Positions 33,531-50,018 of a DNA stretch of 62,824 nt are shown piece by piece. The position numbers were made by a program, and so were the translations under genes. The stretch spans positions 1-62,824 of the forward strand of contig JAYZQJ010000283.1 in assembly GCA_036149055.1 (NCBI GenBank), in the 5' to 3' direction. Position 1 is the stretch's first letter. Each line of letters opens with the position of its first letter. The stretch comes from Myxococcota bacterium. GTDB taxonomy: Bacteria; Myxococcota_A; Polyangia; Polyangiales; Sandaracinaceae. The notes beneath the pieces are model-generated. The model was given only the letters and a program-made list of their open reading frames with translations. It was not told where the DNA came from and made no database searches.

Positions 33531-33604
33531 GGGCTCTTAGCTCAGCTGGATAGAGCGTCGGCCTCCGGAGCCGAAGGTCACAGGTTCGAATCCTGTAGAG
33601 CCCG
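33531..33604 (+). tRNA. tRNA-Arg(CCG)
   Basis: Acceptor GGGCTCT/AGAGCCC, D-arm TAGCTCAGCTGGATAGAGC, anticodon stem TCGGC/GCCGA with loop CTCCGGA, T-loop GTTCGAATC; CCA not encoded. Confidence 0.97.
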
Positions 33605-35198
33605 CTTCCCCCGAATCCCCCGCAATCCCGGGGGGTTCACCCCCTCCGCCGGACCGCACAAGCGCGCCAATCGTTGCCCCCCTCGCGGGCAACCGTGGGC
33701 AACCGGCGTCGTCCTCGGCGCCGATCACTCGCTCGCGCTGGTCAGCGGGGACAAACTCCCGCTTTTCGGGGGCCCCGGGTGCGTTTGAGCCTGGTTTTTT
33801 CGGCACGAAACGGCGGGGACGAACTTCGCTCCGCGCAGCGCGCGCAAAGTCGCCCCCGACGGCACTCGCGGCGCCGCTTCGCTCGGGGTTTCCCGGGGAA
33901 TCCCAGCGCGCGCGAACGGTGCGCGCGAAGTCGCCCTCCGGAGCGCCCGGAGCGCCGCTTCGCCCTGCGTTTCCCGAGGCGTCACGGTGCGCGCGAACCT
34001 CGCCTCCCGGAGGGGCGTGCGTCGGGCCCGTGGGCGTCGCCGCGGCCGCGGCCGCCAGCGCGTCCAGCGCGCGCCGGACGTAGCGCTCCGTGTTGCGCTG
34101 GTCGGCGTGGGCGAGCATCTGTTGGATCTCGTGGAGCGACCACGCGCGGCCCCACGTGCCGATCGCCAGATGCGTCGCGCATGTCCCCCGCAAGTCGTGG
34201 AACCTGATCCGGCGGTCGACGCCGGCGAGCTCGAGCGCGCTCGGTCGGCGGGGCCGCCCCTTCTCGCGCTTCTCGCTCCATCGGAAGTCCTCGCGCTTCG
34301 ACGCGTAGCGGAGGCCATCGCGGTTCGGGAACAGCCACCGCGAGCCCGGGGGAAGGGCGGCGACGTGCGCCTCGAGCCAGGGGCGGAGCCAGGGCATGAC
34401 CGGTATACGGTGCCACCGCTCCGACTTCGACACCCACACGAGCACGTGGGGGCCTCGCTCCGGATCGTCGAGGCGCACGCGCTCGAGCTCGAGGGCCTTG
34501 AGGTCGTTCAACCGGAGGGCGAGGCCGATCGCCGCCGCGTACACGGTCCGGTTGCGCAGCGAGAGCGCCTCGCACGCGAGTAGCCGGTCGAGCTCCTCGG
34601 CCCGGAGCCAGTCGTCTTCGACATTCCGCGCGCGGACCTTCACCCGCACCAGGGCGGCGGGGTTCGGGCGGTCCGCGATGATCTCGGCCCTCACCGCTTC
34701 GTCGAGGACCTGTTTCACCAGGCGGAGCGCGTGGCGCTGCACCTGCGTCGAGATCGTGCCGACCCCGGGCCGTAGCTTCGTCCCGTCGCGGGTGCGGATC
34801 GCCTTCACCTTCGGCCGCTTCCGGAGCCACCGGACGAAGGCCTCGACGTCCGCGGTGCGGATCGCGTCGAGGGGTAGGGCGGCGAGCTCGCTGGGCGCGA
34901 CGTGACGCCGCCAAACCGAGCGCTCCGAGGCGATGGAACGCACGCGCTCCCGCTGGTCGGAGCCCTCGAGCTCGCGGCGGTCGAGCCAGTCGTCGCCGAA
35001 GGCCCGGAGCGTGACCGCGCTCGGCGCGAGGATGGCCGCGTCCCGGACTTCCGCGTTGAAGGCGGCGAGCATCCCCTCCGCGCGCTCGCGGTCATCGAAC
35101 GTCCCGAGGCTCTTGCGCTTGCCGTCGATCGTCACCCGGACGCGCCAGCGCCCGGACGCGGTCGGCTCGATCGTCCCGCTTCCGTTCGCCCGCTTCAC
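33537..35198 (-). CDS. int: Tyrosine integrase, integrated form; reads through attL and stops inside the tRNA gene
   Basis: N-terminal RANGSGTI..GRWRVRV arm-binding-like domain; catalytic R (ALRLNDL), K (SKS), HDLR, LAH and Y (TERY); GTGA-coupled start. Confidence 0.93.
   Translation of the reverse strand: MKRANGSGTIEPTASGRWRVRVTIDGKRKSLGTFDDRERAEGMLAAFNAEVRDAAILAPSAVTLRAFGDDWLDRRELEGSDQRERVRSIASERSVWRRHVAPSELAALPLDAIRTADVEAFVRWLRKRPKVKAIRTRDGTKLRPGVGTISTQVQRHALRLVKQVLDEAVRAEIIADRPNPAALVRVKVRARNVEDDWLRAEELDRLLACEALSLRNRTVYAAAIGLALRLNDLKALELERVRLDDPERGPHVLVWVSKSERWHRIPVMPWLRPWLEAHVAALPPGSRWLFPNRDGLRYASKREDFRWSEKREKGRPRRPSALELAGVDRRIRFHDLRGTCATHLAIGTWGRAWSLHEIQQMLAHADQRNTERYVRRALDALAAAAAATPTGPTHAPPGGEVRAHRDASGNAGRSGAPGAPEGDFARTVRARWDSPGNPERSGAASAVGGDFARAARSEVRPRRFVPKKPGSNAPGAPEKREFVPADQRERVIGAEDDAGCPRLPARGATIGALVRSGGGGEPPGIAGDSGEAGSTGFEPVTFGSGGRRSIQLS
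33560..33611 (+). repeat. attL core (3' part of tRNA-Arg)
   Basis: GGCCTCCGGAGCCGAAGGTCACAGGTTCGAATCCTGTAGAGCCCGCTTCCCC, identical to 49967-50018. Confidence 0.96.
33613..33638 (+). terminator. Element-supplied hairpin just after the tRNA
   Basis: GAATCCCCCG-caatcc-CGGGGGGTTC. Confidence 0.5.
33841..34002. repeat. Two imperfect 81-bp tandem units within the int 3' extension
   Basis: cgcgcRaagtcgccc...gcgccgcttcgc...gtttcccg..gcgcgcgaac starting at 33841 and 33922. Confidence 0.7.
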
Positions 35199-35473
35199 CG
35201 CTTCGGCTCCCTCACGATCAGGCCCATCTTACGGGCGAGCTTGCGGGCCGCGGCCCGGTCGGTGTCGGAGACCTCGACGGGACCGCGGCGGGGCGGCGCC
35301 TTCGCGCTCCTCGCCGGCGCCTTCTCGGGGTTGGCGTCGCGCCGGCCGAGGGCCTCGCGGAGCGCGCGGAGCTCCTCGCGCTGGGCGCGGATCTCCTCGC
35401 CCTGCTCTCGGACGGCGCCGAGCAGCTCGAGGAGCAGCCCGGCGCCGTCGAGGTCCTCGGCCGGCTCGCTCAT
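35195..35473 (-). CDS. Small coiled-coil/basic protein coupled to int (possible directionality factor)
   Basis: GGAGG RBS, ATG 35473, stop overlaps the int start. Confidence 0.7.
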   Translation of the reverse strand: MSEPAEDLDGAGLLLELLGAVREQGEEIRAQREELRALREALGRRDANPEKAPARSAKAPPRRGPVEVSDTDRAAARKLARKMGLIVREPKR

Positions 35474-36069
35474 CGGACCGCGTCCTCCCCCGCGTACCAG
35501 CGCGCCACCGCGCTCCGGAGCGCCTCCTCGCGATCCCACGCGGTGATCGTGACGGTCCGGGTGGAACCGCCGCGGCCCCGCCCGCGCGCCCTGGCGCCCC
35601 ACCGCCCCGCCTCGCGGCAGGGGTAGACGAGGACCTCCACGATGGCGCCGAGGGCGGCACCGCCGGTCGGCGGGGTGGTGTCCACCTTTCGCGCGGAGCC
35701 CGATCCGGTGTCGATTCTGAAGTTCGGGGACGGATCGGCGGTGGCTTGTGAAGTTTCGCGGCCCTCATCTGAGAGGGGCGAAAGTAAACCGGAGCTCCCC
35801 GCGAAGTCCTCGGCCTCCGCCAACCGGTCGCGCATCTCGCGCTCGGCTCGCCTCGAGGCTCCGAGGGCCCCGGCATCCCCGCGGAGCGCGTCGGCGATCC
35901 GGTGGGCAGAGACGGCGCCCGCGCGGAGAGCGAGGGCGACGGCGCCGGCGACGGGCATCAGCGCGGGGCCTCCGTGGCGCAGAAGCGCGAGGAGGCGAAC
36001 CAGCACGCCGCGCAGCGCGCCGAGCTCGCGCACGGCGAGAGAGGTTCCGCCGATCGGCGCCGCTCTCAC
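35470..36069 (-). CDS. Hypothetical protein of the left operon
   Basis: GTGA overlap with the upstream stop and ATGA overlap downstream; start uncertain. Confidence 0.5.
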   Translation of the reverse strand: MRAAPIGGTSLAVRELGALRGVLVRLLALLRHGGPALMPVAGAVALALRAGAVSAHRIADALRGDAGALGASRRAEREMRDRLAEAEDFAGSSGLLSPLSDEGRETSQATADPSPNFRIDTGSGSARKVDTTPPTGGAALGAIVEVLVYPCREAGRWGARARGRGRGGSTRTVTITAWDREEALRSAVARWYAGEDAVR

Positions 36070-36764
36070 GAGGCCCTCTTCATCGGCTGCACTTCGGCGA
36101 AGACTCCGAAGCCGGCGCGCGCGGAGGCCATGATCCGGCCGACGCGCTCGACGTAGGCACGCAGCTCCCCGGGCGGCAGAGGCGCGAGGGCCTCGGCCAG
36201 AACCTCGAGCGAGGTCCCGGCGCGGACGTGGGGCGGCGGGGCCGGGACGAACGCGTCCTCCCGGAACAGCTCGCCCACCGTCGAGAACCACACGTCGAGC
36301 GGACCGCCGTCCCCCACCCATGCGAAGTCGGGGAGGTCCGCGCCCCAGCCCCGATCCCGAAGGGTGTCGACGGCCCACCGGGCTTCACTCGACACGAACC
36401 GCCGAGCCACCTCGGACGCCCCGTCCGCCAGCTGCAGCCCCTCGAGCGCGTACACCAGCGCCTTGCCCACGTCGTCCGGCTCCGCATCGCGCGTCACGTC
36501 GGCGAGCACCCCATCGAGCCCGTCGAGCTCCGCGAGGCGCTCGAGCAGCGCCAGGGACACGCGCTCGAACGGGTCGGCCCGCAACACCTCGAGCAGCAGC
36601 GCGAGGCTCAGCACGTGTACCTCGCTGCGGGGGCTGGACGGGCGCTCAGTAGACACGCCCGGGGGCGGTGTTACGCTGGTCGCGTTCGAGTCTTCACGGA
36701 CCTCGTTCAGCATCGACGCCTCGGGAGTTGCAGCTCCCGGGGCGTTCTCTTTTGTGGTTTCCAT
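36066..36764 (-). CDS. Hypothetical protein, first gene after the repressor
   Basis: GGAGG RBS; 232-aa ORF with a phage-type KENAPGAATPEA N-terminus. Confidence 0.65.
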   Translation of the reverse strand: METTKENAPGAATPEASMLNEVREDSNATSVTPPPGVSTERPSSPRSEVHVLSLALLLEVLRADPFERVSLALLERLAELDGLDGVLADVTRDAEPDDVGKALVYALEGLQLADGASEVARRFVSSEARWAVDTLRDRGWGADLPDFAWVGDGGPLDVWFSTVGELFREDAFVPAPPPHVRAGTSLEVLAEALAPLPPGELRAYVERVGRIMASARAGFGVFAEVQPMKRAS

Positions 36765-36817: not shown

Positions 36818-37444
36818 CTACTTTTCAGTCAAGGAAAGCTCGTCGGTGAGGTCGGCCAGCACCGTAGCGATGCGGCCCGGCGACACAACGAAGCCCCCCG
36901 CGCGCCCGACTTCGAGGAGCATTACCTCCACCGTCGTTTGAATCTCCAGCTCACACCGGCGGATCTCGTCAGCGGAGAACTCCTCGGGCGCGCACCGAAT
37001 GCGAGCCCAGGTTGCGCTTGATTCCATCAGAGACGCGGACAGGCTCACCCACTGGGCAGACTGAATCTCCGTGGCGAGATCCACGAGGTCTTTGAGACGG
37101 ACCCGAGCTCCCCGACGAATGGTCTGGACAAGGAACAGCCCCGCGCGCTGCCCGATTCGCAGATCAAAGGCGCCGCTGCTTGGGGAAGTGTACGTCTCTC
37201 CCAATAGCTCTCCGACAGTCACCTCGAGCGCGTCAGCCAGATCGCAGAGCTTGTCGAGCGTCGGAGATGTCTCGCCGGACTCGTACCTCTGGATGCTGTT
37301 GTACGAAACTCCGCTTGCCTTCGCCAGCTGAGCCCGCGTGAAGCCGGCATCTTCGCAGAGGCGCTGCAGGCGGTCGCCGAACTCGGAGCGCAGCGCGGCT
37401 CGGTTCAGCTCACGAAGGGACTCCGGGGACTCGTCGGCGTGCAT
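36818..37444 (-). CDS. Xre/cI-like HTH repressor
   Basis: FGDRLQRL..AGFTRAQLAKASGVSYNSIQRYESGETSPTLDKLCDLADALEV; no S24 peptidase motif seen. Confidence 0.88.
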   Translation of the reverse strand: MHADESPESLRELNRAALRSEFGDRLQRLCEDAGFTRAQLAKASGVSYNSIQRYESGETSPTLDKLCDLADALEVTVGELLGETYTSPSSGAFDLRIGQRAGLFLVQTIRRGARVRLKDLVDLATEIQSAQWVSLSASLMESSATWARIRCAPEEFSADEIRRCELEIQTTVEVMLLEVGRAGGFVVSPGRIATVLADLTDELSLTEK

Positions 37445-37520: not shown

Positions 37521-37727
37521 ATGGATTTCCGAACGTGGGTAGGTGCGCAGCGCCGGGGCACCCTGGCTCGCATTCGTCGGGAGACCGGCCTCGGGTGGTC
37601 GACGCTGTGGCGGGCTCAGCAGGGGCACAGCGTCTCGTACCGGACGGCACGCGCGCTGAGTCTCGCGACAGGCGGTGTGGTCTCCATCGTCAGCCTCTGT
37701 GAGGCCCACGAGGTCGAGGCCGCGTGA
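37521..37727 (+). CDS. Cro-like small HTH protein
   Basis: 68 aa, divergent from the repressor; LARIRRETGLGWSTLWR...ARALSLATGGVVSIVSL. Confidence 0.8.
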   Translation: MDFRTWVGAQRRGTLARIRRETGLGWSTLWRAQQGHSVSYRTARALSLATGGVVSIVSLCEAHEVEAA

Positions 37728-37865: not shown

Positions 37866-38138
37866 ATGCCGATCACCACCATCACTGACCGGGCCCCGGT
37901 GCTCGAGGTCGCGCCGATCGGCGCCGCCGGTGTGCTCGCGATCGTGAGCGAGGCCCTCCGCGCCCTCGGCGAGCGGCGCGACGCGGGAGCGCGCCCCGAG
38001 GCGCTCGCGGCGGAGACGGCGGCGGCGCGCGCGTGGGCGCGCCCCGAGCGCGAGGGCCGCCGCGGAGCCGCGGCCGAGGCCGCGCGCGTGCTCGTGGCCA
38101 CGGCCGGCGACGCGATCGCCGAGGAGGGCCGCAGATGA
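37866..38138 (+). CDS. Hypothetical Ala-rich protein
   Basis: GAGGAG RBS; ATGA-coupled to the next gene. Confidence 0.65.
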   Translation: MPITTITDRAPVLEVAPIGAAGVLAIVSEALRALGERRDAGARPEALAAETAAARAWARPEREGRRGAAAEAARVLVATAGDAIAEEGRR

Positions 38139-38662
38139 GCCCGGGCACCGAGCTCCCGCCGCTCCCGCCGCCGTGCGCGGCAACCGCCGAGGACGTGGCC
38201 ACGGTCGCGATGATGGTCGAGGTCCTCGACGTCGAGCTCGGCGTCCTCGAGGTCGGGGAGGGCATCCGCGCGCTGGGGGGCGACGCCGAGGGCGACTGCT
38301 ACGGCGCCTTCGTCGTCCGCCGCGACCGGCGGACCCTGCGGCGCTGGCTCTCCCGGACCGTGGCGCTCCGACGTTGCCCGCGGCCCCGCCCGACGACGAC
38401 TGCGACGGCGCCCCGCGCGACGCGGCGCGAGACGCGGTCGCAGCCCACCGCGACGGATCCGGGGGGCGGGGACGACGACAACGGCCCACCAGACGGGCCG
38501 CTCGAGGACCAGCGCCCGGCCGCGTGCCCGGTGTGCGGGTCCGGAGACCACTGGCGGCGCCCCCCGCGGAACGCGGGGCCGCTGCCCTACGAATGCCTGG
38601 CGTCGCTGTCGCGCGGGCTGGTGATGAGGCTCAGGGGGAGTGCTCGGAGGGACCACAGATGA
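38135..38662 (+). CDS. Hypothetical protein with a CPVC Zn-knuckle-like motif
   Basis: ATGA overlaps at both ends; CPVCGSGDHW. Confidence 0.6.
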   Translation: MSPGTELPPLPPPCAATAEDVATVAMMVEVLDVELGVLEVGEGIRALGGDAEGDCYGAFVVRRDRRTLRRWLSRTVALRRCPRPRPTTTATAPRATRRETRSQPTATDPGGGDDDNGPPDGPLEDQRPAACPVCGSGDHWRRPPRNAGPLPYECLASLSRGLVMRLRGSARRDHR

Positions 38663-39714
38663 CGACCGGCGGAGGCGCAGATGCGCCTGACGCGGACCGT
38701 GCCTCGGGGGAGGGGCGCGGAGACGAGTACTTCGGACGTGCGCCGGACTGGCTATTCGACCTGCTCACGCGGCCGAAGGCGGATCCGTGGAGGCTGACCC
38801 AGCTCGACGTCCTCCTGTGGATCCTGCTGAGCAGGTACGCGGGGCTGACGGGCGACGCCTACCCCAGCCATGCCCTGTTGGCGCGGCGACTCGGCTGCAC
38901 GGAGAGAGCGGTTCGGCGCTCGGCGGAGAAGCTCGTGAAGATGGGCCTGGTCGAGGTGCAACGTCGCGGTCACCGTGGAAGGTTCAACGTGTACAAGATG
39001 AGTAGGCCTCAGAGGACCCCAGGGTCCGGTGAGATCACGCCTGAGAGGACCCCAGGGTCCGGTGAGACCCCGCCTGAGAGGACCCCAGGGTCCGGTGAGA
39101 TCCCACCCGAGAGGACCCCAGGGTCCGGTGACACGCGTGTCACAGGACCCTGGGGTCCATCTGACAGGACCCCAGGGTCCTGGGGAAGGAGATCAGGAAG
39201 TTCGTTAAAAAGTAGTAGGACGCGCGAGACGCCCGAGACGGCGACGTCGGGGGGCTCCACCGGGCAAGAGAGCGAACCGACGACGACTACTCTCGATCAC
39301 TCTCGCCTCCGGGCCGACACCGCGTCGCTGCTCCGGCAGCACTGGAGCCGCGAGTGGGGGAGGCGCAGCGCTGGGCAGGCGACAGCCGCCCACCTCGCGG
39401 AGGTCGCGCAGCTCGCGTGGTGGTTCGATGAGCTCTCGCGCGAGCAGGCCAAGCCCGTGGCGGACCTCATCGAGGGCGCCGTCCGCGCCTTCTTCGAGGC
39501 GAAGCGGAAGTACCGGAGGCCGCCGGCGCGGTGGTTCTGCGAAGACCCTGGCCGGTGGCTCGAGGCGGAGGCTCTGGGCGAGGATGACACGCGCGCGCGG
39601 CTGCAGAAGGTCCTGGCCGAGATCGACGAAGCCGTGTGCGCCGATCCGGAGACGATCCACGAGCTCGAGCGGCAGCGCGACGCGCTGATCGAAGAGCTGC
39701 AGGGGGCCGCATGA
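38659..39714 (+). CDS. Replication initiator, N-terminal wHTH (lambda O-like organisation)
   Basis: AYPSHALLARRLGCTERAVRRSAEKLVKMGLV..NVY; internal iterons; directly upstream of dnaB. Confidence 0.82.
   Translation: MTTGGGADAPDADRASGEGRGDEYFGRAPDWLFDLLTRPKADPWRLTQLDVLLWILLSRYAGLTGDAYPSHALLARRLGCTERAVRRSAEKLVKMGLVEVQRRGHRGRFNVYKMSRPQRTPGSGEITPERTPGSGETPPERTPGSGEIPPERTPGSGDTRVTGPWGPSDRTPGSWGRRSGSSLKSSRTRETPETATSGGSTGQESEPTTTTLDHSRLRADTASLLRQHWSREWGRRSAGQATAAHLAEVAQLAWWFDELSREQAKPVADLIEGAVRAFFEAKRKYRRPPARWFCEDPGRWLEAEALGEDDTRARLQKVLAEIDEAVCADPETIHELERQRDALIEELQGAA
39014..39220. repeat. Iteron array / probable replication origin
   Basis: GGACCCCAGGGTCC at 39014, 39047, 39080, 39113 (33-bp period), inverted at 39145, direct at 39167; A-rich tract at 39195-39220. 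Confidence 0.85.
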
Positions 39715-41039
39715 CGGGCCGGGATCCTGAGCTGGCGCTGCTCGCCTGCGTCCTCCTCGAGCCGGCGGTCCTGGACGAGGTGGGCGACGTGGTCTCGCCT
39801 GCGGAGTTCGCCGTCCCGCTCCACGCCGCCGCCTTCGAGGCGATGCGCGCGCTTCGCGACCGTGGCGATCACGTGGACCTGGTGAGCCTGCGGGCGCACC
39901 TGCTGGCGATCGGCGCCGGAGACGGGCACGTGCTGGACCGACTCGTCCTCGCGGTGAGCGACCACATCCCGGACACCGCGGCGGCGGAGACCTACGCCCG
40001 GCTCGTCTCGGGGGCGGCGGCAGTGCGTGCGGTGACGCGCGAGGCCTCCGCGATCGTGGCTCGCTCCCGCGCTCCCCTCGCCGATGGCGGCGACGTGGAC
40101 GCCTTCCTGGACGCGGCCGAGGCAGGGATCCTCACCGCGACCGCGGGGCGCCGGTCCGACGCGCGGACCGTCGGGATGAGCGAGGCCCTCCACGAAGCCA
40201 CCCGGGCGCTCGTGGCCCGGGCGGAGTCGAAGGCCGAACTCGACGGCCTCAGCACAGGGATGGCGAACCTCGACCGGACCCTCGCCGGGCTGCGCGCGGG
40301 CGAGCTCGTGGTGCTTGCTGGACGCCCCGGGATGGGGAAGAGCGCGTTCGCGGGGCACATCGTGCGGACCGCGGCGGGAGACGGGCACACCTGCGCGGTC
40401 TACTCGCTCGAGATGGAGCATCGATCGTGGGCGGAGCGGTGGGCCTGCGCAGAGGGGGGCGTCGATGCCGGTGCGGTCCGCCGCGGGCGGTTGAGCCGCG
40501 ACCAGTGGGACAGGTGGTTGGACGCGAGCGCTCGCCTCGCCTCGCTACCGATCGTGGTCGATGACACGCCCTCTCTGTCGCTGCCGGCGCTGCGGTCGAA
40601 GGCCCGGCGCGTCCGCGCCCGCAACGGCCTGGGCCTGATCGTCGTGGACTATCTGCAGCTCATGACATCCGGCGAGGGCCACCGGGAGCGCAACGACGAG
40701 GTGGGGGCCGTGAGTCGCGGCTTGAAGGCCCTGGCGAAGGAACTCTCCGTCCCGGTGCTCGCGCTCGCCCAGCTGAACCGCGGCCTCGAAAGCCGAAAGG
40801 ACAAGCGCCCGAGCCTGTCTGACCTCCGCGAGAGTGGGCAGATCGAGCAAGACGCAGACGTGGTCATGTTCCTCTATCGACCCGGCATCTACGCGCCGGA
40901 GCTCGCGTCCCCCTCGGCGCTCGAGGTGATCATCGCCAAGCAGCGCGCGGGTCGTACCGGCACGGTGAAGGGCACATTCCACGGCGCGACCTACCGATTC
41001 GACGGGGCGCCCGATGAAGGGACGTACGACGATGCGTGA
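39711..41039 (+). CDS. dnaB: Replicative DNA helicase, element-encoded DnaB
   Basis: GRPGMGKS, YSLEM, VVDYLQLM, LAQLNR, DLRESGQIEQDAD, IAKQRAG. Confidence 0.93.
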   Translation: MTGRDPELALLACVLLEPAVLDEVGDVVSPAEFAVPLHAAAFEAMRALRDRGDHVDLVSLRAHLLAIGAGDGHVLDRLVLAVSDHIPDTAAAETYARLVSGAAAVRAVTREASAIVARSRAPLADGGDVDAFLDAAEAGILTATAGRRSDARTVGMSEALHEATRALVARAESKAELDGLSTGMANLDRTLAGLRAGELVVLAGRPGMGKSAFAGHIVRTAAGDGHTCAVYSLEMEHRSWAERWACAEGGVDAGAVRRGRLSRDQWDRWLDASARLASLPIVVDDTPSLSLPALRSKARRVRARNGLGLIVVDYLQLMTSGEGHRERNDEVGAVSRGLKALAKELSVPVLALAQLNRGLESRKDKRPSLSDLRESGQIEQDADVVMFLYRPGIYAPELASPSALEVIIAKQRAGRTGTVKGTFHGATYRFDGAPDEGTYDDA

Positions 41040-41856: not shown

Positions 41857-42548
41857 GCCACGCGAGGGGCGAGCGTCGCGACACCAGATGTAGCGGCCGT
41901 GGCCGATCGGCCACCGCTGAGCTGGGGGAGGGCGGCGGCGAGGCGCTCACCCTGCGGTGCTCGAGCGACGGGCGGCCGTGCGAGTTGCTCGCCGCCTCGT
42001 CGACGGAACCGCCGTGCTCGTTCTGCGGCCGCTGGCTCGCTTCGACGGCCGCAGAACTGACGGGGCTTCGCCTCGGACGGATCGAGCGAGAGATCCTGCT
42101 TGCGGCCTCGCCAGCTCGCGGGGTGCATTCCCCCATGCCGACGACCGCCGCCCGGTCGTCGGTGCGGCGAGCGGCGACCAAGCTCGAGCGCGCGGGCCTG
42201 GTGCACCTCCACCCGATCCGGGTCTGCCGGCCCGCTCGGCGGGTTGCGAGCCGGATCCGGAACCCCGAGGGAGGGAGCTTCCTGACGTTCACCGTCGACC
42301 AGCGCGCCCGGGTGTGGGAGCTCGGGGCGCGCCGCACGCTTCTCGGGGAGGGCGCTGTGGCCATCTACGGCGGAGAGCTCGCGGGCGGCGGGCGCATTCG
42401 ATGGGAGCGCCTCATCGAAGAAGCCCCGGGGCTGGGGGAGACGCCGGCGGAGCTGCGCTCCCGTCAGGCCCCGTCGGGCCCCCGCCCGCCCGGCCTTTGC
42501 GAGGCGTGGACGGAGTTCTCACGGCTGAGGACGGGGGCCGAAGAGTGA
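41853..42548 (+). CDS. Hypothetical protein with Cys cluster and possible winged helix
   Basis: GTGA coupling; CSFCG; SVRRAATKLERAGLV. Confidence 0.6.
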   Translation: MSHARGERRDTRCSGRGRSATAELGEGGGEALTLRCSSDGRPCELLAASSTEPPCSFCGRWLASTAAELTGLRLGRIEREILLAASPARGVHSPMPTTAARSSVRRAATKLERAGLVHLHPIRVCRPARRVASRIRNPEGGSFLTFTVDQRARVWELGARRTLLGEGAVAIYGGELAGGGRIRWERLIEEAPGLGETPAELRSRQAPSGPRPPGLCEAWTEFSRLRTGAEE

Positions 42549-42747
42549 GGCTCGCCCGTCCATCGGCGACCCTCCGGCGGGGGGGCACCACCGCTGCGTC
42601 TGCGCGTGAGCTGCGTGAGGCCGCCCCACACCCGCCTCGTGCCCGCTGCGCGGCCGCGGGCGGCCGTTGCACTCTGCGCGCGCGGCGAGTCTCTGAGGGG
42701 CCGTGGGGACCCGGCACGACGGCCTCGCGACGCCGTCTGAGCGGCGC

Positions 42748-42796
42748 GGGTCCTGTGGAGCACCCCCCCCGCACTGCGGTTTATTTTCACCACCGC
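42748..42796 (+). other. Candidate lambda-like cos site (cosQ plus dyad)
   Basis: GGGTCCT (42748-42754) then GCGGT-N11-ACCGC (42776-42796) in the element's largest intergenic gap. Confidence 0.45.
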
Positions 42797-42975
42797 TGGC
42801 CTCGCACAAACTCTGAGGTTCAGCCGGAGTTGAACCTCTTCGGACCGCTGGCACAGTGGCACACGTTATCTATGTGACTGGAATTGTTCGTAAAACTGCC
42901 AGTCGCTGCCCTGGCCCCGACCACCGAACACGTTCGGGTGATCAGGGGCGCGTCTGAACCGACCGGAGACCGACC

Positions 42976-43215
42976 ATGCCCCGACATCGCTCCTCGCTTC
43001 CGCCCCCCGAGGACCCGTCCGCCGAGCGACGATTCCGCGTCCTGTCGGCCCTGACCCGTGCGCTCGACGGCACGGACGGGATCCCGCGGACGGAGGCAAC
43101 CTCCGCCGCGCGCGCCGAGCTCCGGGAGGCGTACCGGCGGCTCACCCGTCCGGCGGATGGCCACCTGGATGAGCTCGAGGCCGCGCTCGAGCGCTACCGC
43201 GAGGCCGTCTCGTGA
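42976..43215 (+). CDS. Hypothetical helical protein
   Basis: GGAG RBS; coupled to the next ORF. Confidence 0.65.
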   Translation: MPRHRSSLPPPEDPSAERRFRVLSALTRALDGTDGIPRTEATSAARAELREAYRRLTRPADGHLDELEAALERYREAVS

Positions 43216-43706
43216 CGCCGATGGAGCTCGCAGAGGCCTCCGACGGCCTCGACGCTGGCGACCTGGTCGAGGCCGTCCGCGTGATGCTTCGGCGCCGGCG
43301 TCGAGGCCTCGGCGGCCCCTTCGAGCGTGCGGTGGTGCTCGCGATGATGGCCGCTCTCGACCTGCCGCTCTCGTCCGAGCTCGAGCGGCGCGCGGAGGGA
43401 CTCGGCGCGGTGAGCCGGGGCGTGCGGACGCGGGCCGGCTACGCGGACGCCGCGCCCGGTCTGCGCGAGATCGCCCGCGTCATCGAGGCCACACAGTCGT
43501 TGCCGTTGTCGGCCCGCGCGCTCGAGGTGCGGTGCTCGCTCGCGGAGATGGGGGCGAGTCTCGACCTCGACCACCTCGAGGCGCTGATCGGTGCTCGCCA
43601 AACCCTCCGGGCGAAGGTGGCGGCGATCGGAGTCGCTGCGCGTCTGCTACCCAGCGGTGACCCACGCCGCGCGCGCGACCACGTTCGGCGCGCTCTCGCT
43701 TCGTGA
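43212..43706 (+). CDS. Hypothetical helical protein
   Basis: GTGA coupling; GC3-biased. Confidence 0.6.
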   Translation: MTPMELAEASDGLDAGDLVEAVRVMLRRRRRGLGGPFERAVVLAMMAALDLPLSSELERRAEGLGAVSRGVRTRAGYADAAPGLREIARVIEATQSLPLSARALEVRCSLAEMGASLDLDHLEALIGARQTLRAKVAAIGVAARLLPSGDPRRARDHVRRALAS

Positions 43707-43767
43707 GGGTGAGGGTGGACAGTGAGACTCCACCTCACGGAACGTTCGAAGGCGCCATGCTGGCGCC

Positions 43768-43998
43768 ATGAGTTCTCGACGGGTCTCCGACACTCCGCTG
43801 TCCACACGAACGACGCGCCGTCTGGCTGTCGAAGCGGACTGCGACCCGCGGACCATCAGCCAGGTCATGCGCGGGGAGTCCGTCCGCGGTCCCGTGGCGG
43901 ACCGGATCCGAAAGGTGCTGGCCGCCAACGGCATCGAGCCGCCCCCCGTCACAACGCTCTACCGGCACCCGCCGGTGAACCTTCGCGGGGGGGAGTAG
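43768..43998 (+). CDS. Small HTH protein
   Basis: RRLAVEADCDPRTISQVMRGESVRGPVADRIRKVL. Confidence 0.7.
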   Translation: MSSRRVSDTPLSTRTTRRLAVEADCDPRTISQVMRGESVRGPVADRIRKVLAANGIEPPPVTTLYRHPPVNLRGGE

Positions 43999-44000
43999 CG

Positions 44001-44384
44001 GTGCCGATTCCGACCGCCGTGCTCCGCCGCCGCCTCGAGTACCGCGGCAAGGTGTGCGCACCGGACGGCGCGCACGCGTTCTGCGTCGTGCGAGACGTCT
44101 CGGACTTCGACGGGCTCCCGATCACCAGCGGTGTGACCTCCGATCCGGCCCTCGTCGCCCGGTTCGAGCAGTGGCGGGACGGGGTACAGCAGGTGGGGGG
44201 CGTCCTGATCCCGGTGCCGATCCTCTTTCTGACGATGGCGGGCCTCCCGAGCCATGGCCGCCGCGGCGAGGCGATGGTGCTGTCGGCTCGCGACGCGTCG
44301 ATCGACCTGATCCTCACGTACGAGGCCGAGGCCTCCTACCTCGCCTTCGTCGAAATGCTCAAGCGACGCCGCCTGGCGGCGTAG
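44001..44384 (+). CDS. Hypothetical protein
   Basis: GGGAG RBS before GTG 44001; C-terminal part of ORF 43722..44384. Confidence 0.6.
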   Translation: MPIPTAVLRRRLEYRGKVCAPDGAHAFCVVRDVSDFDGLPITSGVTSDPALVARFEQWRDGVQQVGGVLIPVPILFLTMAGLPSHGRRGEAMVLSARDASIDLILTYEAEASYLAFVEMLKRRRLAA

Positions 44385-44397: not shown

Positions 44398-45051
44398 ATG
44401 GGACTCTTCACCTTCAAGATCAAGACGCCGGCGGCGTCGCTGGCCGACCTCGAGCACCAGCTCGACCAGGCGCGAGAGGCGCAGTCCGCCGCGGACACCC
44501 AGGTCAGCGACGCGGAGCGCGAGTTCGACGCCACCGGTGCGGCGAAGGCGCTGGGCGTTCTTCAGGCGGCGAGACTGACGGCCGCGGAGGCCGCGGAGCA
44601 CGTCGGGCGCGCCGAACGGCTGCTCTCGGCCGCCCGGGCCCGCGAGGAGGAGGCGCGACGCGAGGAGCTCCGCGCGGAAGCCGAGCGGCTCGACTCCGAG
44701 CTGACGCAGGAAGCGCTCGAGGAGGCCGCACGGCCCCTCGCGCGACGGGAGGCCGAGCTCGCCGTCGAGCTCGCGACGGTCCGTCAGCAGCGCGCAGCCC
44801 TCGCGGCCGACGTCGACGCGAAGTGCGAGCGCCGCAGTGCCATCGCGATCCAGCTCGACGAAGAGGGAGCCCACGGCGGCGTCTGGACCGACGAGCAGGG
44901 ACGAACGAGGACCGGGTCTCCGTTCGGCATCAAGCGCGGGAGCGTCGTTCTGCATCTGGACCGCGTCTGGAGCGAGCTCCAGCATCTCTCGAGGCAGTCG
45001 AAGACCGGCCAGCTCGTCCAGAGGATCATTGACTCGGGGACGGACCGGTGA
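44398..45051 (+). CDS. Long coiled-coil protein
   Basis: 217 aa; A/E/R/L-rich heptad-like sequence over most of its length. Confidence 0.75.
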   Translation: MGLFTFKIKTPAASLADLEHQLDQAREAQSAADTQVSDAEREFDATGAAKALGVLQAARLTAAEAAEHVGRAERLLSAARAREEEARREELRAEAERLDSELTQEALEEAARPLARREAELAVELATVRQQRAALAADVDAKCERRSAIAIQLDEEGAHGGVWTDEQGRTRTGSPFGIKRGSVVLHLDRVWSELQHLSRQSKTGQLVQRIIDSGTDR

Positions 45052-45106: not shown

Positions 45107-45517
45107 ATGAGCGTGAAGCAGCAGCACTCCGCAACCCTCGACGACCTCGACCCCGACCTCGCCGAGGTCACGGCCGCGATGAGGCGCGGGGAGATGACCG
45201 CCGAGGAGGCGCTCGAGGAGCTCGTCGCGCGCCGGTCCTCCGATCGCGGGCCCGCGGCGCTCGCCGCCCAGGTGGCCGACATCCTCGACGAACGCCGGGG
45301 GCACGCCCCGACCCCCGCGCGTGCCGAACGCGAGCCGACCGAGCCTCGGCCGCGGTCGGCGGGACCGACGCCGCCCCCCGCCGCGGCGGACCGCCCGATC
45401 ACGGCGGAAGAGGGGCTGCAGCTGCTCGAGGAGCTGCGCGCGTCCCGCACGCCGTCACCCGAGCAGCTCGCCTCACAGGTGGCCGACATCCTCGAACGTC
45501 GACGCCAGCACCGATGA
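45107..45517 (+). CDS. Protein with two copies of a helical motif joined by a Pro-rich linker
   Basis: TAEE..LA(A/S)QVADIL..RR twice; GGAGG RBS. Confidence 0.7.
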   Translation: MSVKQQHSATLDDLDPDLAEVTAAMRRGEMTAEEALEELVARRSSDRGPAALAAQVADILDERRGHAPTPARAEREPTEPRPRSAGPTPPPAAADRPITAEEGLQLLEELRASRTPSPEQLASQVADILERRRQHR

Positions 45518-45662: not shown

Positions 45663-46013
45663 ATGAACACGATCCCCGTCTCCGAGGCCGTCGAGCTCCT
45701 GCGCATCCAGCGCCCGAACGCGGCGCGGTGGCTCCGCCGGCATCTTCGCCGGCGCGAGGAGCAGACCGGCGCGCGGATCCTCGTGGACGTCTCGGCACCG
45801 GGCGCTCGCCGGCCGGCGTACGGCGTGGACATGGTCCGGCTGGCCGAGCAGTGCCCGGACCTCGTCCGCGAGGAGGCCGAGCTCGCTGAGGCCGTCCGGA
45901 CCGCCCTCGCGCCCGAGCGGCGGGCGCTCGCCAGGTTGGTCGAAGACCTGGGTGAGGTGCGGATGCAGCTCGCGATCCTCACCGAAGCAGTGCGCCAGCT
46001 TCGTCGTAGGTGA
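45663..46013 (+). CDS. Possible wHTH plus coiled-coil protein
   Basis: IPVSEAVELLRIQRPNAARWLRR N-terminus; Leu-heptad C-terminus. Confidence 0.65.
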   Translation: MNTIPVSEAVELLRIQRPNAARWLRRHLRRREEQTGARILVDVSAPGARRPAYGVDMVRLAEQCPDLVREEAELAEAVRTALAPERRALARLVEDLGEVRMQLAILTEAVRQLRRR

Positions 46014-46045
46014 AGCGCGGCGGACTGCGGCCCGGCGCGCGCACT

Positions 46046-46465
46046 TCAGTCGTGCGCGCGCATCACGGCTACCACCGTTTCAGCCAGGACCTGCAAAGGG
46101 GACTTGGTTGGAAGCGGTTCGCCGGGCGTCGGCGCGATCGCGGGATCGGCCTCGAGGCTGTATAGCCTCTTCTCCTTTCGCGAGAACAGCAGCTCGACCG
46201 CGACCGGTTTGCCCTCTTCAGGCCGGACATAGAGGCCCTCCTCGGCATCATAGGCTACCCTGACAGCTCTCCGCCGCTCGGTGCGGCCGACGCCGATGTG
46301 CAGAGCTCCGCCCTGCTCCTCGGCGTCGTAGCCCAGGAAGCGCGCCAGGGAGCCAAGCTGCCGCCTGAGGTCGTCGCACGCTGCGATCGCGTCGCTGTCC
46401 GCCCAGTCGAGCTTGACCTCGTCGCGAAAGACCTCAAGCGCGTGCCTTGCTCGCTCGTCATCCAT
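46046..46465 (-). CDS. Hypothetical cargo protein
   Basis: Globular-looking 139-aa ORF with lower GC3. Confidence 0.6.
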   Translation of the reverse strand: MDDERARHALEVFRDEVKLDWADSDAIAACDDLRRQLGSLARFLGYDAEEQGGALHIGVGRTERRRAVRVAYDAEEGLYVRPEEGKPVAVELLFSRKEKRLYSLEADPAIAPTPGEPLPTKSPLQVLAETVVAVMRAHD

Positions 46466-46535
46466 CGTTGCTCTTGCCCTTCGTCTTCCACCCTCTCTGC
46501 GAAAAGTGTACTGTGCAAGGCGCTGGGGGTGAAGG

Positions 46536-47021
46536 GTGGCGAGTCTTCTTCGGTCCTCGCTGAGCATCTGGGTGGTCGCGGGTCTCGTTCTCGGATCCGC
46601 CGCCTGCTTCGCACCCAAACACGGAGGCTCCCGCTCGAGCCGGGCGTCCCCCCAGTACGAGGAAGCGTGGGAGACGCGACCCGTGTTCGAGCGGCGCGTC
46701 GTCGCCCGTCCGCGCGAGCGCGTCGAGCCAGCCTGCTACGCCCCGTGCACCGACCTGTGGGTCTGCGATTGGGACGAGATTGCAGCGGACTGGCAGTGCG
46801 GTCGGATGAGCCGCGAGGAGTACACGCGGTCTCGGACCCGACGCGTCGAGGTTGGTAGAAGACAGGTGCGTGTGCGGCGGACTGTGACCGCCCCGCCTCG
46901 GCAAGCGCCGACCACACCTGCGTATCGGCCGAGCTCGAGCGGTCGCGTGCACGTGCGCGGATACTATCGGCGCGACGGGACGTACGTCCGCCCACACACG
47001 CGGCGACGGCCGCGGAGATGA
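46536..47021 (+). CDS. Lipoprotein-like protein with basic C-terminal VxGYxRxDGTYVxxHxR motif
   Basis: Signal peptide ending SAAC; VHVRGYYRRDGTYVRPHTR. Confidence 0.65.
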   Translation: MASLLRSSLSIWVVAGLVLGSAACFAPKHGGSRSSRASPQYEEAWETRPVFERRVVARPRERVEPACYAPCTDLWVCDWDEIAADWQCGRMSREEYTRSRTRRVEVGRRQVRVRRTVTAPPRQAPTTPAYRPSSSGRVHVRGYYRRDGTYVRPHTRRRPRR

Positions 47022-47076
47022 GGGCCCACACGGCACGTCAACGGTTCATGTACCGTCGCGTCTGGAGGTGCAGTCG

Positions 47077-47631
47077 ATGAGGACGAAGAAGACGAGGGCG
47101 GGGCTCCTTGCGGCGTTGGCCACCATCGGGGTGTGGGCCTGCGACGCGGCGCAGCCGCTCGGCGATGCGATGGTGGAAGCGGGCGCCGAGCTCATGGACG
47201 CCGGGCGTGGGCTCCGGGACGGCGCGAGTTCCGACGCCGCCGCCCAGCCGCCGGAGCCGGTCTCCGTGCCGTGTGTGCCGCGAACTTGGCGCATCGTACA
47301 GGCCGACGGGCCGGTGCGAGAGACCACGGTCTACTATGCCGAGATCGAGGCTGCTTCCATCACTCCGACGTCACGAATCCGCGCGGTGATGTGCGATGAG
47401 GAGACGCTGGGGGACCCGTCCGACCCGGAGATGTGCCCCGATGGGGCCACCTGCACTGGGGAGCACTACCAGGCACCGGCGCTTCGATGCAGGGTGGCGG
47501 TCGGGGGAGAGGTAGAGGAAGGGCGAGCGCGGTTCCGTTGCGGTAACCGCCAAATCGCCCAGGACGCGAGCGGGACCACGATCTACGACTTCGGGGCCCG
47601 CTGGCGCGACGTGCGCGTGTTCGTCGAGTAG
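47077..47631 (+). CDS. Cys-containing lipoprotein
   Basis: GGAGG RBS; lipobox VWAC; myxobacterial DAG-type linker. Confidence 0.75.
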   Translation: MRTKKTRAGLLAALATIGVWACDAAQPLGDAMVEAGAELMDAGRGLRDGASSDAAAQPPEPVSVPCVPRTWRIVQADGPVRETTVYYAEIEAASITPTSRIRAVMCDEETLGDPSDPEMCPDGATCTGEHYQAPALRCRVAVGGEVEEGRARFRCGNRQIAQDASGTTIYDFGARWRDVRVFVE

Positions 47632-47660
47632 CTCAAGGCGGCGTGGCCGGATGCGCCGTC

Positions 47661-48269
47661 TCAGCCTTTGCGCGGAGCGTTTGGGTCTGATGCGGCCACA
47701 CCAAGAGCGTGGCTGTGTGTGTACGGCCGATCTGCCTCGACGTGGAGCGCAAGCCCATACTGCTTGAATGCTGCCTGGGCATCACTCCAAGCGGAAACGG
47801 CCCGATTCACAGCTGCTCGGACCGCCTTCTGACTCTCTTCGCCAACCGGCCGCTCTGGCTGCCATACACGAACGAGCTCGAACAACGACTCTTGCATGAC
47901 AGAGTCGGCCGCCAGAATCGGCTGGGCGAAGGCAGGCGGTAGGTAGAAGCTGAGGCGGGGAGCGGGGCCCTGCTCGCCTTGTCTCTGCGACCACTTCGAC
48001 GTGCCATAGAGCAAGTCACCACCTAGCGTCATCACATCCGTACTCAGCCGGTCCAGCCGAGCCTTGGCATCCTCCATTGCACGCGTTTCCCGGTCGAAGA
48101 GGACAGTGTGGCGCTCCGACTTCCTCTGCGCCTCAGCCGTCGCTTGCACTTTGAAGTGCCCTGCCACGGCGGCCACGATGGCGACAAGGATGTTCACGCC
48201 GCCACCGACAAGGGCCCCCAAGAGGGCGGCGCCTGCTGCGACTAGCGCACTCTGAACCTGGGTGTCCAT
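47661..48269 (-). CDS. N-terminal TM plus helical domain protein, lower-GC cargo
   Basis: ALVAAGAALLGALVGGGVNILVAIV; visibly lower GC. Confidence 0.7.
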   Translation of the reverse strand: MDTQVQSALVAAGAALLGALVGGGVNILVAIVAAVAGHFKVQATAEAQRKSERHTVLFDRETRAMEDAKARLDRLSTDVMTLGGDLLYGTSKWSQRQGEQGPAPRLSFYLPPAFAQPILAADSVMQESLFELVRVWQPERPVGEESQKAVRAAVNRAVSAWSDAQAAFKQYGLALHVEADRPYTHSHALGVAASDPNAPRKG

Positions 48270-48318
48270 TTCTCACGAGCGTAGAACAGGTTTGCGTTCG
48301 GATACCACCGCGTCAGAG

Positions 48319-48594
48319 TCAAACGTCGCCGCCCTGAGGCCACGGCTCGTCGAAGAGCGCGGCGAAGCTGGGCTGCTGGTCGTAGCGGAACTCGCAGTAG
48401 AGGACCGCGTCGTGAGCCTGCGGCGAGCGATTCTCGCCCCGCGCCTCGTGCATCACACCGCGGACCCGGTAGACGTAGCTACCGCTGCGCACGACCTCGC
48501 CCACCCGAGGAACCTCGGCCAGCTGCATGGGATTCGTGATCTGCCCGCCCTCCAGGTTGAGGACCAGAACGCGCACCGAATTGCCTTCCGTCAT
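48319..48594 (-). CDS. Small beta-rich hypothetical protein
   Basis: VPRVGEVV..YRVRGVMH; TACCAT 7 nt before ATG 48594. Confidence 0.65.
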   Translation of the reverse strand: MTEGNSVRVLVLNLEGGQITNPMQLAEVPRVGEVVRSGSYVYRVRGVMHEARGENRSPQAHDAVLYCEFRYDQQPSFAALFDEPWPQGGDV

Positions 48595-48683
48595 GGCGAA
48601 CATGGTAGATCAACGCACGGCGCGATCCTACAGACATGAGCGGCGACTTCACCGGCAGACGTCGGTCGCGTAGGCTCACGTCC

Positions 48684-49283
48684 ATGAGCGCCCAGAATCC
48701 CAAGGGCAGCACCTACCTCGCGTGGCCGCCGTTCGGCGGAACGGATGCGAGAGTCGCGTACGCAACGCTATGGTTCGTTGAGAGTGCGATCGCCGAGGCT
48801 GAGCTCTCCGTCGGGGTCTTCGAGGAACTCCGCACAGGGCGCGCACTCGTCACTGGGATCTTGTCTGGAAATCCACGCGCTCCGTTCCTGGCGAAGGTGC
48901 GCCACACGCTGTCCGGTCGAAGCTTCCTGGAAGGCTTGGACCGTGCACAGCAGGGCTTGCGCTCGTTGGTGGAGAACACACGGCACGGCACCCCTGACGC
49001 ACGTGTCCGGATGGAGGCGCTGGCAGGGCTGTATCCGCACCTGCGGAGTATGCGCAACACGGGTCAGCACATAGACGAGCGGATTCGTCGCATCGGCGCG
49101 AAGGGAAAGCAGATGCCACCCGGCGTCATCGTGCTCGAGGCGATCGACGGGAGAGACTTCGTGAGCTGCGACGGGGAAGGCATCGCGAGGCGTCTTCCCG
49201 TCCGGGCGGAGACTCTGGGCGCGTTCGTCGCGAAGGCGCAGGCGGTCGTCGACGCTCTGGATGGGGATGGGGCACCAGAATAG
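48684..49283 (+). CDS. Putative HEPN-domain RNase
   Basis: Helical protein with an R-x4-H motif (LRSMRNTGQHIDER); TAGGCT 7 nt before ATG. Confidence 0.6.
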   Translation: MSAQNPKGSTYLAWPPFGGTDARVAYATLWFVESAIAEAELSVGVFEELRTGRALVTGILSGNPRAPFLAKVRHTLSGRSFLEGLDRAQQGLRSLVENTRHGTPDARVRMEALAGLYPHLRSMRNTGQHIDERIRRIGAKGKQMPPGVIVLEAIDGRDFVSCDGEGIARRLPVRAETLGAFVAKAQAVVDALDGDGAPE

Positions 49284-49286
49284 CCC

Positions 49287-49607
49287 TCACCGGCACACGT
49301 CCTGGCAGACCTCCGCCTCGAGCTCGGCGCAGGTCCCCGCCGCCTCGACGGCCCGGATGCACGCGCTCGCGCGCTCTCGGTGGCACTCCACCCGGAAGCA
49401 CTCGATCGAGCACAGCCGCGCGATGCGGAGGCAGAACGGGTACGCCGAGACCCACACCTCCCCGGCGTCGCGCGCCCCAGCCGTCGAGGCGTCGGGCTGG
49501 GTCGCGTCGTCGAGCTCGGCGCCGGCGTCGGGGCCCGTCCCGGGCACGCAGCCGGCCGCCAGGGCGAAGAGGGCGGCCAGCGCCGCCGTTCGGATCGTGT
49601 GTCGCAT
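49287..49607 (-). CDS. Small Cys-rich lipoprotein
   Basis: GGAGG RBS; lipobox AAGC; 8 Cys in the last ~50 aa. Confidence 0.75.
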   Translation of the reverse strand: MRHTIRTAALAALFALAAGCVPGTGPDAGAELDDATQPDASTAGARDAGEVWVSAYPFCLRIARLCSIECFRVECHRERASACIRAVEAAGTCAELEAEVCQDVCR

Positions 49608-49637
49608 CGGTTCCTCCCCTCGCGGCCGGAGCCGCGG

Positions 49638-49966
49638 TCAGTCCTCGCCCCGGCCGCGGCCGGCCGCGCCGTCGGCCGCGCCGGCGCCGTCGTCCTCGAG
49701 CACCAGCGCGGCGAGCTCGAGGGCCTTGCGGGCGACGTGGGGCCCGTCGGCGGCGAGCTCGAGGGCGAGCCGGACCTCCCGGCGCTCGAGCACGCTCGAC
49801 CGGAGGGCCTCGACCAGGCCGGCGGTGATAGGCTCCCCGGCGGCTGCCGCTTCGACCAGAGCGCGGGCCGCTTCGACGGCCTGACAATGAGGCTCGCGGG
49901 TGTTGCGGTTGCCCCCGCGTTGTCCTGCGATCGCGCTATGTGCGCGGGATCCTTCGGGTGCGCCGG
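49638..49966 (-). other. Detached integrase C-terminal coding segment (109 aa), joined in frame only at attP
   Basis: Same reading frame through the att core (GEAGSTGFEPVTFGSGG) as int at attL; open to TGA at 49638. Confidence 0.8.
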
Positions 49967-50018
49967 GGCCTCCGGAGCCGAAGGTCACAGGTTCGAATCC
50001 TGTAGAGCCCGCTTCCCC
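49967..50018 (+). repeat. attR core (tRNA 3' fragment)
   Basis: Identical to 33560-33611. Confidence 0.96.

Follow-up and report, generated by a model that had tools for sequence, protein, structure and literature searches.

A candidate cos-type phage satellite at tRNA-Arg(CCG) in a myxobacterial genome

Borders, gene content and integration mode

The window analyzed here comprises 62,824 nucleotides of a Myxococcota bacterium, positions 1 to 62,824 of contig JAYZQJ010000283.1 (contig C283 of source genome G000; assembly GCA_036149055.1, 9.9 Mb, 96% complete). Its tRNA-Arg(CCG) gene is occupied by an integrated element without recognizable virion genes, which is probably a phage satellite packaged through a cos site. 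The ends are exact 52-bp direct repeats, mismatched on both sides and spaced 16,407 bp apart, in agreement with the excised circle proposed in an earlier note on this DNA. The first copy comprises the 3′ part of the tRNA gene and its flank. No RNA family beyond the tRNA was found in an Rfam-type scan of the element. In G001, a genome of the same genus, tRNA-Arg(CCG) has no comparable element adjoining it.

Candidate open reading frames (ORFs) were scanned against Pfam and PHROGs (29 ORFs, E ≤ 0.1) and against NCBIfam (25 ORFs, E ≤ 0.01). The scans bore out the gene order read earlier: integrase, leftward ORFs, an XRE repressor with a divergent helix-turn-helix (HTH) gene, initiator, DnaB, a protein with the DnaB_C domain only, a gap, helical ORFs and cargo. 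Also in line with the earlier note, capsid, portal, terminase, lysis, relaxase and type IV secretion system (T4SS) genes had no family match, and the same scans gave no tail, holin, portal or connector gene. The sole structural-class row was a tape-measure match (E 0.013) on a 202-aa cargo ORF; it covers a hydrophobic stretch and was judged spurious. AlpA, MerR and a primase domain were absent from the Pfam and PHROGs matches of the element ORFs, and no defence family was found in the element at E ≤ 0.01. The features up to the gap are given below; "sister" denotes the syntenic element on viral contig G062, which is discussed later.

33531..33605, plus strand: tRNA-Arg(CCG), the integration target, left intact (ARAGORN, Rfam)
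33560..33611, unstranded: attL core, 52 bp, exact repeat
49967..50018, unstranded: attR core, 52 bp, exact repeat
35470..36764, minus strand: two leftward ORFs, 199 and 232 aa; no family match (Pfam, PHROGs, NCBIfam); partial homologs in sister
36818..37444, minus strand: XRE repressor, 208 aa; HTH_31 7e-15, N-terminal only
37521..37727, plus strand: Cro-like small HTH protein, 68 aa, divergent from the repressor; weak HTH matches, E 0.003-0.06
37866..38662, plus strand: two early ORFs, 90 and 175 aa; 73% and 78% to sister
38659..39714, plus strand: O-like replication initiator, 351 aa; HTH_36 3e-8; phrog_270 (1e-12)/phrog_391; 93% to sister
39006..39219, unstranded: probable origin within the initiator gene; four 33-bp dyad repeats (39006-39131), inverted copies and a short A/T-rich tract
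39711..41039, plus strand: DnaB helicase, 442 aa; PF00772 and PF03796 (2e-89); dN/dS 0.14 vs sister
41032..41856, plus strand: second DnaB-like protein, C-terminal domain only, 274 aa; PF03796 2e-30; dN/dS 0.24
41853..42548, plus strand: o12, 231 aa; 83% to sister, dN/dS 0.30; two database matches, one being the element's own

The repressor showed no detectable S24 peptidase domain. The arrangement of dyad repeats, inverted copies and A/T-rich tract inside the initiator gene is one that we take to resemble the lambda origin. The 274-aa DnaB-like protein has no N-terminal domain and, by eye, lacks the arginine finger, yet it is under purifying selection; it is possibly a helicase partner or a decoy. 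A metagenome scan with DnaB returned generic matches of 34-45% only.

The integrase gene and the features associated with integration are as follows.

33537..35198, minus strand: tyrosine integrase, 553 aa in the integrated form; PF00589, 5e-14, above the cut-off; ORF crosses the att core
33840..33998, unstranded: two 81-bp repeats in the int linker, which is poorly codon-adapted (codon score -32)
35195..35473, minus strand: small ORF upstream of int, with homologs upstream of related integrases (L021, L022, L024, L032, sister)
49638..49966, minus strand: alternative integrase C-terminus, 109 aa, in frame with int in the excised circle only

In the integrated state the int frame passes through attL and stops inside the tRNA with 553 aa, whereas in the excised circle it reads on into 49966-49638 and encodes 655 aa. 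The two forms have 546 residues in common, followed either by 7 host-encoded residues or by 109 element-encoded ones, and the last 62 codons of this 109-aa tail have a third-position GC content (GC3) of 100%. The C-terminal switch was present in all three related att-bounded elements tested (L024, L032 and L026), whose tails at attR align with that of the element, and a homologous tail is fused within the attP-form integrase of the sister. In phage Mx8, attP lies inside int and integration alters the integrase C-terminus (PMC6070905). The element has this Mx8-type arrangement, and its 655-aa form is, judging from Mx8, probably active. The 81-bp repeats are probable arm-type sites, and the small ORF upstream of int is, from its position, a probable recombination directionality factor.

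The earlier note had proposed to look for syntenic elements at tRNA-Arg. Close relatives of the integrase (50-63%) sit at tRNA-Arg(CCG) and at further tRNAs, in elements quite unlike this one, and the integrase is therefore not family-defining. An integrase scan confirmed nothing among viral contigs and gave one weak, unrelated match among genome contigs. One element with a related integrase, L024:2530-18401 (G019), spans 15.8 kb at tRNA-Arg(CCG) and also encodes a DnaB-like helicase and a 931-aa protein. It encodes its own large terminase (phrog_38, 3e-66), with no recognized capsid among its scanned ORFs, and its sequence marks it as another small element type at this site. Related-integrase elements also lie at tRNA-Arg genes in L026:1211-12209 (G012, 11 kb), L032:1483-7633 (G028, 6.1 kb) and, as a cut element, L021 (G014). 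All three carry primase-like genes, and L026 has in addition a second integrase and, by eye, head-protein-like and tail-fibre-like ORFs.

The cos site and the candidate helper prophage

A BLAST search of the element against its own genome returned three outside matches: host DnaB DNA, 48 nt on C143 and 92 nt on C57. The last of these aligns 42747-42837 with C57:36376-36466 at 85% identity over 92 nt, and the C57 site is positioned directly before the small terminase gene (terS) of a prophage. With the whole genome searched, this match scored 96.9 bits, compared with 50.9 for the best of 200 shuffled controls. The interval that the earlier note had called a cos-like gap thus corresponds to the site preceding terS in a resident prophage. 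Among 27 element ORFs, o19 alone has a homolog in this prophage, and no element ORF matches the prophage TerS or PHROG terS.

The prophage comprises C57:12911-68389 and C5 (loci L035, L222-L224), its right end being split over the two contigs. It begins at the transfer-messenger RNA (tmRNA) gene, its other att matches contig C5, and a relative joins both ends. It measures 64.0 kb or more, and a relative is estimated at 64.0 kb. The genes include a GpA-type large terminase (TerL), lambda-family portal, protease, head decoration, capsid E, tape measure and baseplate J. From its sequence, it is apparently a complete lambda-like prophage of about 64 kb, and it lies on a different contig from the element, which is in a host tRNA. 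The prophage integrase seems to span att too, with 489 aa in the integrated state and 509 aa in the attP-form relative G062. Features at and beyond the gap are listed below.

42748..42836, plus strand: cos; cosQ-like GGGTCCT (42748-54), 22-nt spacer, cosN-like CG-[15 nt, 42779-93]-CG, TTGAACC (42830-36)
42924..42937, unstranded: inverted pair of sister-type repeats, CCGAACA / GTTCGG, within the element
42976..44384, plus strand: post-cos small ORFs o13 (79 aa), o14 (164 aa), o15 (76 aa, HTH-like) and o16 (128 aa)
44398..45051, plus strand: o17, 217 aa, long-helix protein (AlphaFold2 model) and family marker
45107..45517, plus strand: o18, 136 aa, SHOCT-like repeats; PF22746 6.5e-5, below the cut-off; 65% to sister
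45663..46013, plus strand: o19, 116 aa; 39% to C57:35078-35401, a prophage gene near the prophage cos; dN/dS 0.15
46046..49607, unstranded: variable cargo of about 7 ORFs; GC lower, 66-69%; some lipoprotein-like by eye; mostly missing from sister

The heptamer GGGTCCT is one we take to be cosQ. Read directly from the lambda sequence record, the end of lambda has the same heptamer, 21 nt, CG and then the cohesive end, a spacer 1 nt shorter than the 22 nt of the element. Lambda-like phages have CG pairs on either side of the nicks, and the 7 bp of their cosQ are strongly conserved (PMC4669245). By sequence, then, the gap holds a lambda-type cos with a predicted 15-nt 5′ overhang. A scan of viral contigs for the cos pattern gave two stretches, G061, a close relative of the helper, and G062 (IMGVR_UViG_3300025109_000007, linear, 67,646 nt). 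G062 terminates exactly after the 15 nt between both CG pairs, which fits a filled-in 5′ cohesive end, an assembly break being the alternative. The same spacing precedes terS in the G061 phage and in a prophage of G035, from another family. A 13-sequence alignment covers the cos site. A loose cosQ pattern run over 301 genomes matched at about control level, with G035 as its one new real lead, and the 111-nt cos gave one weak match among 31 other genomes of the family.

Downstream of cosN, three copies of TTGAACC occur in the helper, at offsets 73, 83 and 106, for an expectation of 0.002 per 140 bp. The element retains the copy at offset 83, together with an inverted partial copy. The retained copy lies at bp 52-58 from the predicted left end, equivalent in position to the critical R3 of lambda, which spans bp 50-65 (PMC9026076). 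In the sister, the repeats after cosN are of another type, TGTTCGG at 70, 82, 90 and 106. Across helper, element and sister, the cosB repeats track the source of the terminase. The inverted pair at 42924-42937 is possibly a relic of the sister's cosB type.

One further locus, L051/L182 (G022:C1221:365-2500), has a cos motif, helper-type TTGAACC repeats and a short TerS-like HTH ORF, followed by tail-like genes; neither a terminase nor a capsid gene adjoins its cos motif.

Among the post-cos ORFs, o13 has a homolog behind the terS-like gene of L215, and o15 is 42% identical to its sister counterpart. For o14 there was no ESM Atlas match ≥0.9 and none in the metagenome scan. Homologs of o19 occur in three further related phages; fold searches with it were uninformative. 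We regard o19 as a candidate mimic of a late regulator.

The sister element and relatives carrying o17

The sister occupies G062:1-17368 and is syntenic with the element. Identities are 95% for DnaB, 86% for the DnaB-like protein, 73% for o14, 81% for o17 and 90% for o19, the integrase reaching just 35%. Its integrase is in the attP form with, by eye, a tRNA-Val-like core inside the ORF. The sister is capsid-less too. Its cos is followed by a gene for a 195-aa TerS-like protein, the HTH of which shows 41% identity to helper TerS across 64 aa. The sister further encodes head-decoration, tail-fibre-like and tape-measure proteins. Of these genes, those for the TerS-like protein, head decoration and tape measure are missing from the element. 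With no TerS-like gene and one helper-type repeat, the element should therefore depend on the helper terminase. In the sister TerS-like protein (L046:11426-12013), a short motif that follows the HTH in helper TerS recurs as a second, C-terminal copy, possibly a mimic of a TerS dimer helix. Inside the tape measure, G062 turns into helper DNA, and its identity to the prophage of G000 climbs there from about 0.58 to 0.85; the contig is either an assembly chimera or a true hybrid. The 11 genes shared by element and sister have no stops, with dN/dS of 0.14-0.30 in eight and 0.48-0.70 in three short ones. These values indicate that the shared genes, including the post-cos ones, are under purifying selection.

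The AlphaFold2 model of o17 is a long helical hairpin. An o17 profile search of 1.8 billion representatives yielded 73 matches at E ≤ 1e-3, most of them 200-245 aa long, and none of 71 aligned members had a consistent Pfam or PHROG family. Matches to a wider profile were found in 13 of 400 other genomes of the order (seven candidates scored per genome) and in 1 of 400 genomes across the phylum; the genome-contig collection gave no match. We examined 15 o17-matching loci and kept four weak ones (G152, L216, L217 and L218) in the denominator, although these lack a cos motif and look like other elements. The cos motif is present in 8 of the 15 loci and in 6 of the 7 best-scoring ones (the miss is a 3.6-kb contig), against a background of 0.04 per 17 kb for a pattern fitted to these same sequences after the fact. 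L206 resembles the element in having cos and o17 with no detected TerS-like gene. No major capsid, portal or large terminase was matched in 92 hand-picked ORFs from nine o17 loci. Late genes matched among them were the tape measure (2), head decoration and tail tube and, in weak-scoring loci, tail fibre and one head protease. One member has 57-bp repeats 16.7 kb apart at tRNA-Ala, and four others occupy most or all of 15-19 kb contigs. Relatives use a primase-helicase, DnaG with DnaB, or an O-like protein with a DnaC-like one. The lambdoid initiator/DnaB replicon that the earlier note saw in the element is therefore one of several among its relatives, not a hallmark of the family.

Searches around o17 also gave leads of other kinds. 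A likeness to P4 Psu or Sid was suggested by an ESM Atlas Psu cluster (0.88, 177 shared features), a lead only, unsupported by BLASTP. It was rejected after hhalign probabilities of 0.2% for Psu and 0.4% for Sid, a PDB profile search without support, and fold searches that returned generic coiled coils. Predicting a complex between o17 and the helper capsid protein brought no answer (score 0.00), and this outcome is counted neither way. We infer only that o17 is a candidate helper-interference or capsid-size factor. Separately, L186+L187 (G152, tRNA-Pro, 47-bp repeats 15.2 kb apart) are related to L217 (45-bp repeats 14.3 kb apart). This pair, with a weak o17 match, has terminase-like ORFs and, in G152, head-protease-like ORFs by eye, and possibly represents capsid-forming satellites.

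These comparisons bear on whether the element is a lambdoid prophage that lost its late genes by deletion and kept its early genes and cos. The order int, leftward genes, cI/cro, O-like gene, DnaB and cos does resemble a lambdoid early region, and the initiator weakly matches (37-39% over 67-92 aa) the initiators of two helper-type phages. However, o19 and cos are the only matches to the resident prophage, and the sister and relatives in several families are capsid-less as well, at 15-19 kb where length can be judged. Moreover, viral contigs contained no full-length phage with o17 (the one locus being the sister contig), and the post-cos genes are under purifying selection. We consider a deletion remnant very unlikely.

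For the satellite interpretation, chances seem about even that the element belongs to an undescribed, order-wide myxobacterial satellite family of lambda-like cos phages, defined by the helical protein and the 15-nt cos and not by the replicon. Such a family would have swapped replicons and integrases and captured helper tail and head genes, and o17 would be a new capsid-size or interference factor. It would also have two packaging states. One, with its own TerS-like gene and its own cosB, would parallel Rpp independently; the other, without TerS and with repeats mimicking the helper, would be that of the element. In the E. coli phage-inducible chromosomal islands (PICIs) with Rpp, cosQ and cosN are common with the helper, cosB differs, and a TerS-like gene lies beside cos (PMC9026076).

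Proposed packaging model and comparison with known systems

Four of 20 listed sequencing runs were compared as assembled contigs, for which depth does not stand for copy number. The probable source run has the element as a single unitig of 16,415 nt with depth 28; its flanks are at 27-37 and a helper unitig is at 29. Near-identical element pieces occur at depth 4-7 in runs of two other studies; in one of these the right flank is at depth 90, which hints that the element is present in a minority of related cells. In run X2, where near-identical element pieces have depth 5-7, a divergent relative of the integrase region 34034-35465 reaches depth 45, and this sample holds more than one element of this integrase type. 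Paralogous genes for surface proteins with cysteine/aspartate repeats, on both sides of the element (30875-33481 and 50764-52515), are the source of most repeats in the window and of most spurious joints in the run-contig comparison.

We favor, as the probable explanation, a functional cos-type satellite that works like a cos-PICI, with the resident prophage or a relative as helper. Several results weigh against it. The contig joints listed for the probable source run included no attP or attB junction, and in that run element and helper look quiescent, with no amplification. The element keeps one of three helper repeats and one inverted partial copy, and no interference gene could be named. 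In the wider family, the cos motif is missing from 7 of the 15 o17 loci, which include short contigs and elements of another kind; 8 of the 15 have the TerS-like gene that the element lacks, and helper-type TerL was found in 1 of 10 genomes with o17 relatives.

Some of these points would also fit a crippled member of a real satellite family, which had lost its TerS-like, head-decoration and tape-measure genes, had an incomplete cosB and was packaged poorly or not at all. The sister has those three genes at this position, sister-type repeats persist at 42924-42937, the helper-type repeats are down to one of three, and the reads show the element quiescent. On the other hand, the att sites are exact, the ORFs are open and under purifying selection, and the element is present in runs of other studies. 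The retained repeat is also of helper type at the position of lambda's R3 (bp 50-65; PMC9026076), and in L206, too, cos and o17 occur with no TerS-like gene detected. We regard decay of this kind as rather unlikely. The scarcity of helper-type TerL in most genomes with o17 relatives would instead suit an integrative replicating element that moves without a helper terminase, by conjugative mobilization, vesicles or generalized transduction, with cos as a passenger. This is highly improbable, as relaxase and T4SS were undetected by Pfam, PHROGs and NCBIfam, and cos is conserved across divergent members beside terS-like, head-decoration, tail-tube and tape-measure genes. For the helper-dependent satellite of the earlier note there are now a candidate helper, a shared cos and capsid-less relatives including the sister; that the element is intact, as the note also held, is likely though unproven.

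As a functional satellite, the element would sit repressed in tRNA-Arg(CCG), where it is observed. Lytic growth of the ~64-kb tmRNA prophage, or of an infecting relative, would derepress it. Excision restores the frame of the 655-aa integrase with its different C-terminus, which, if Mx8 is a guide, would be active. Replication would then proceed from the iterons in the initiator gene with the element's own DnaB, as its anatomy suggests. Helper TerS/TerL would recognize the element cos (cosQ, cosN and one TTGAACC) and cut a 15-nt 5′ overhang. Helper heads could package a 4-mer (65.6 kb, 102.5% of helper length) or a 3-mer (77%); alternatively, a monomer could enter small heads, provided that o17 remodels the capsid. 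The products of o17, o19 and their neighbors would probably tilt the contest with the helper.

Among known systems, the cos-PICIs are similar in design. Those of E. coli are integrated and capsid-less, have their own replicon and need the helper terminase (PMC6092414; PMC9026076). Like EcCICFT073 and its Rpp relatives, whose helpers are lambda and phi80, the element is capsid-less and has cosQ and cosN in common with a lambda-like helper, and the sister mirrors the cos-rpp layout, with a TerS-like HTH gene by cos and a different cosB. The element differs from them in having no AlpA, a CI/Cro-like switch, and an O-like initiator with two DnaB proteins versus a primase-replicase. It further differs in its lack of an Rpp/TerS-like gene, its helper-type cosB repeat and its predicted 15-nt, not 12-nt, end, and it is larger than the 9.5-kb PICI median (PMC10085698). 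The cos-type Staphylococcus aureus pathogenicity islands (cos-SaPIs), with the helper's cos and no terS, likewise leave packaging to the helper cos machinery (PMC6092414) under repressor control; they belong to another phylum, with no detected homology and a different replicon and integrase type. Mx8 and Mx9 have the attP-within-int mode in common with the element and are full phages, unlike it.

P4-like satellites also have cos in common with their helper, and the long helical protein and helper-gene homolog of the element are reminiscent of P4 Sid/Psu and delta. By hidden Markov model searches, the element is without the alpha primase-helicase, AlpA, epsilon, Sid, Psu and delta. The PLEs, elements that resemble phage-inducible chromosomal islands, encode tape measures (PMC12987554), and elongated PICIs capture late genes (PMC10111431). 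Relatives of the element similarly carry tape-measure, tail-tube or head-decoration genes and the element itself none; its helper is a temperate lambda-like phage in which it is not embedded. The capsid, portal, large terminase and head-tail connector of capsid-forming PICIs (cf-PICIs) were not detected in the element, and helper-embedded PICIs are integrated in a helper late gene, the element in a host tRNA instead. Of the PICI core used by SatelliteFinder (PMC10085698), the element has the integrase and is without tail, holin, portal and connector genes, and it has no primase-replicase and no small terminase. As to the regulator item (AlpA, MerR or Stl), AlpA and MerR had no match, and the element carries the XRE repressor and Cro-like HTH protein; as to a capsid-morphogenesis gene, no capsid family matched and o17 has no assigned family. 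Because the core items of PICIs (primase, TerS), P4 and cf-PICIs are lacking, we do not file the element in those families.

The earlier note knew of no described myxobacterial satellite family, and the literature searched, which left most subscription journals outside, likewise yielded no myxobacterial phage satellite. The SatelliteFinder main text, as excerpted, does not mention myxococci; its hosts are listed in supplements outside this comparison. A family of this kind would escape the satellite models now in use, which call for primase, AlpA or TerS and disallow tail genes, and it could be a gene-transfer route in a group that is hard to manipulate. The element, its candidate helper, the predicted cut site and the candidate terminase-binding repeats are defined at base resolution. 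Element and sister form a natural experiment on how packaging is won, by copying the helper signal or by a TerS-like redirector with a new signal. Compared with the systems described so far, the element probably works like a cos-PICI and belongs to an apparently undescribed satellite lineage.

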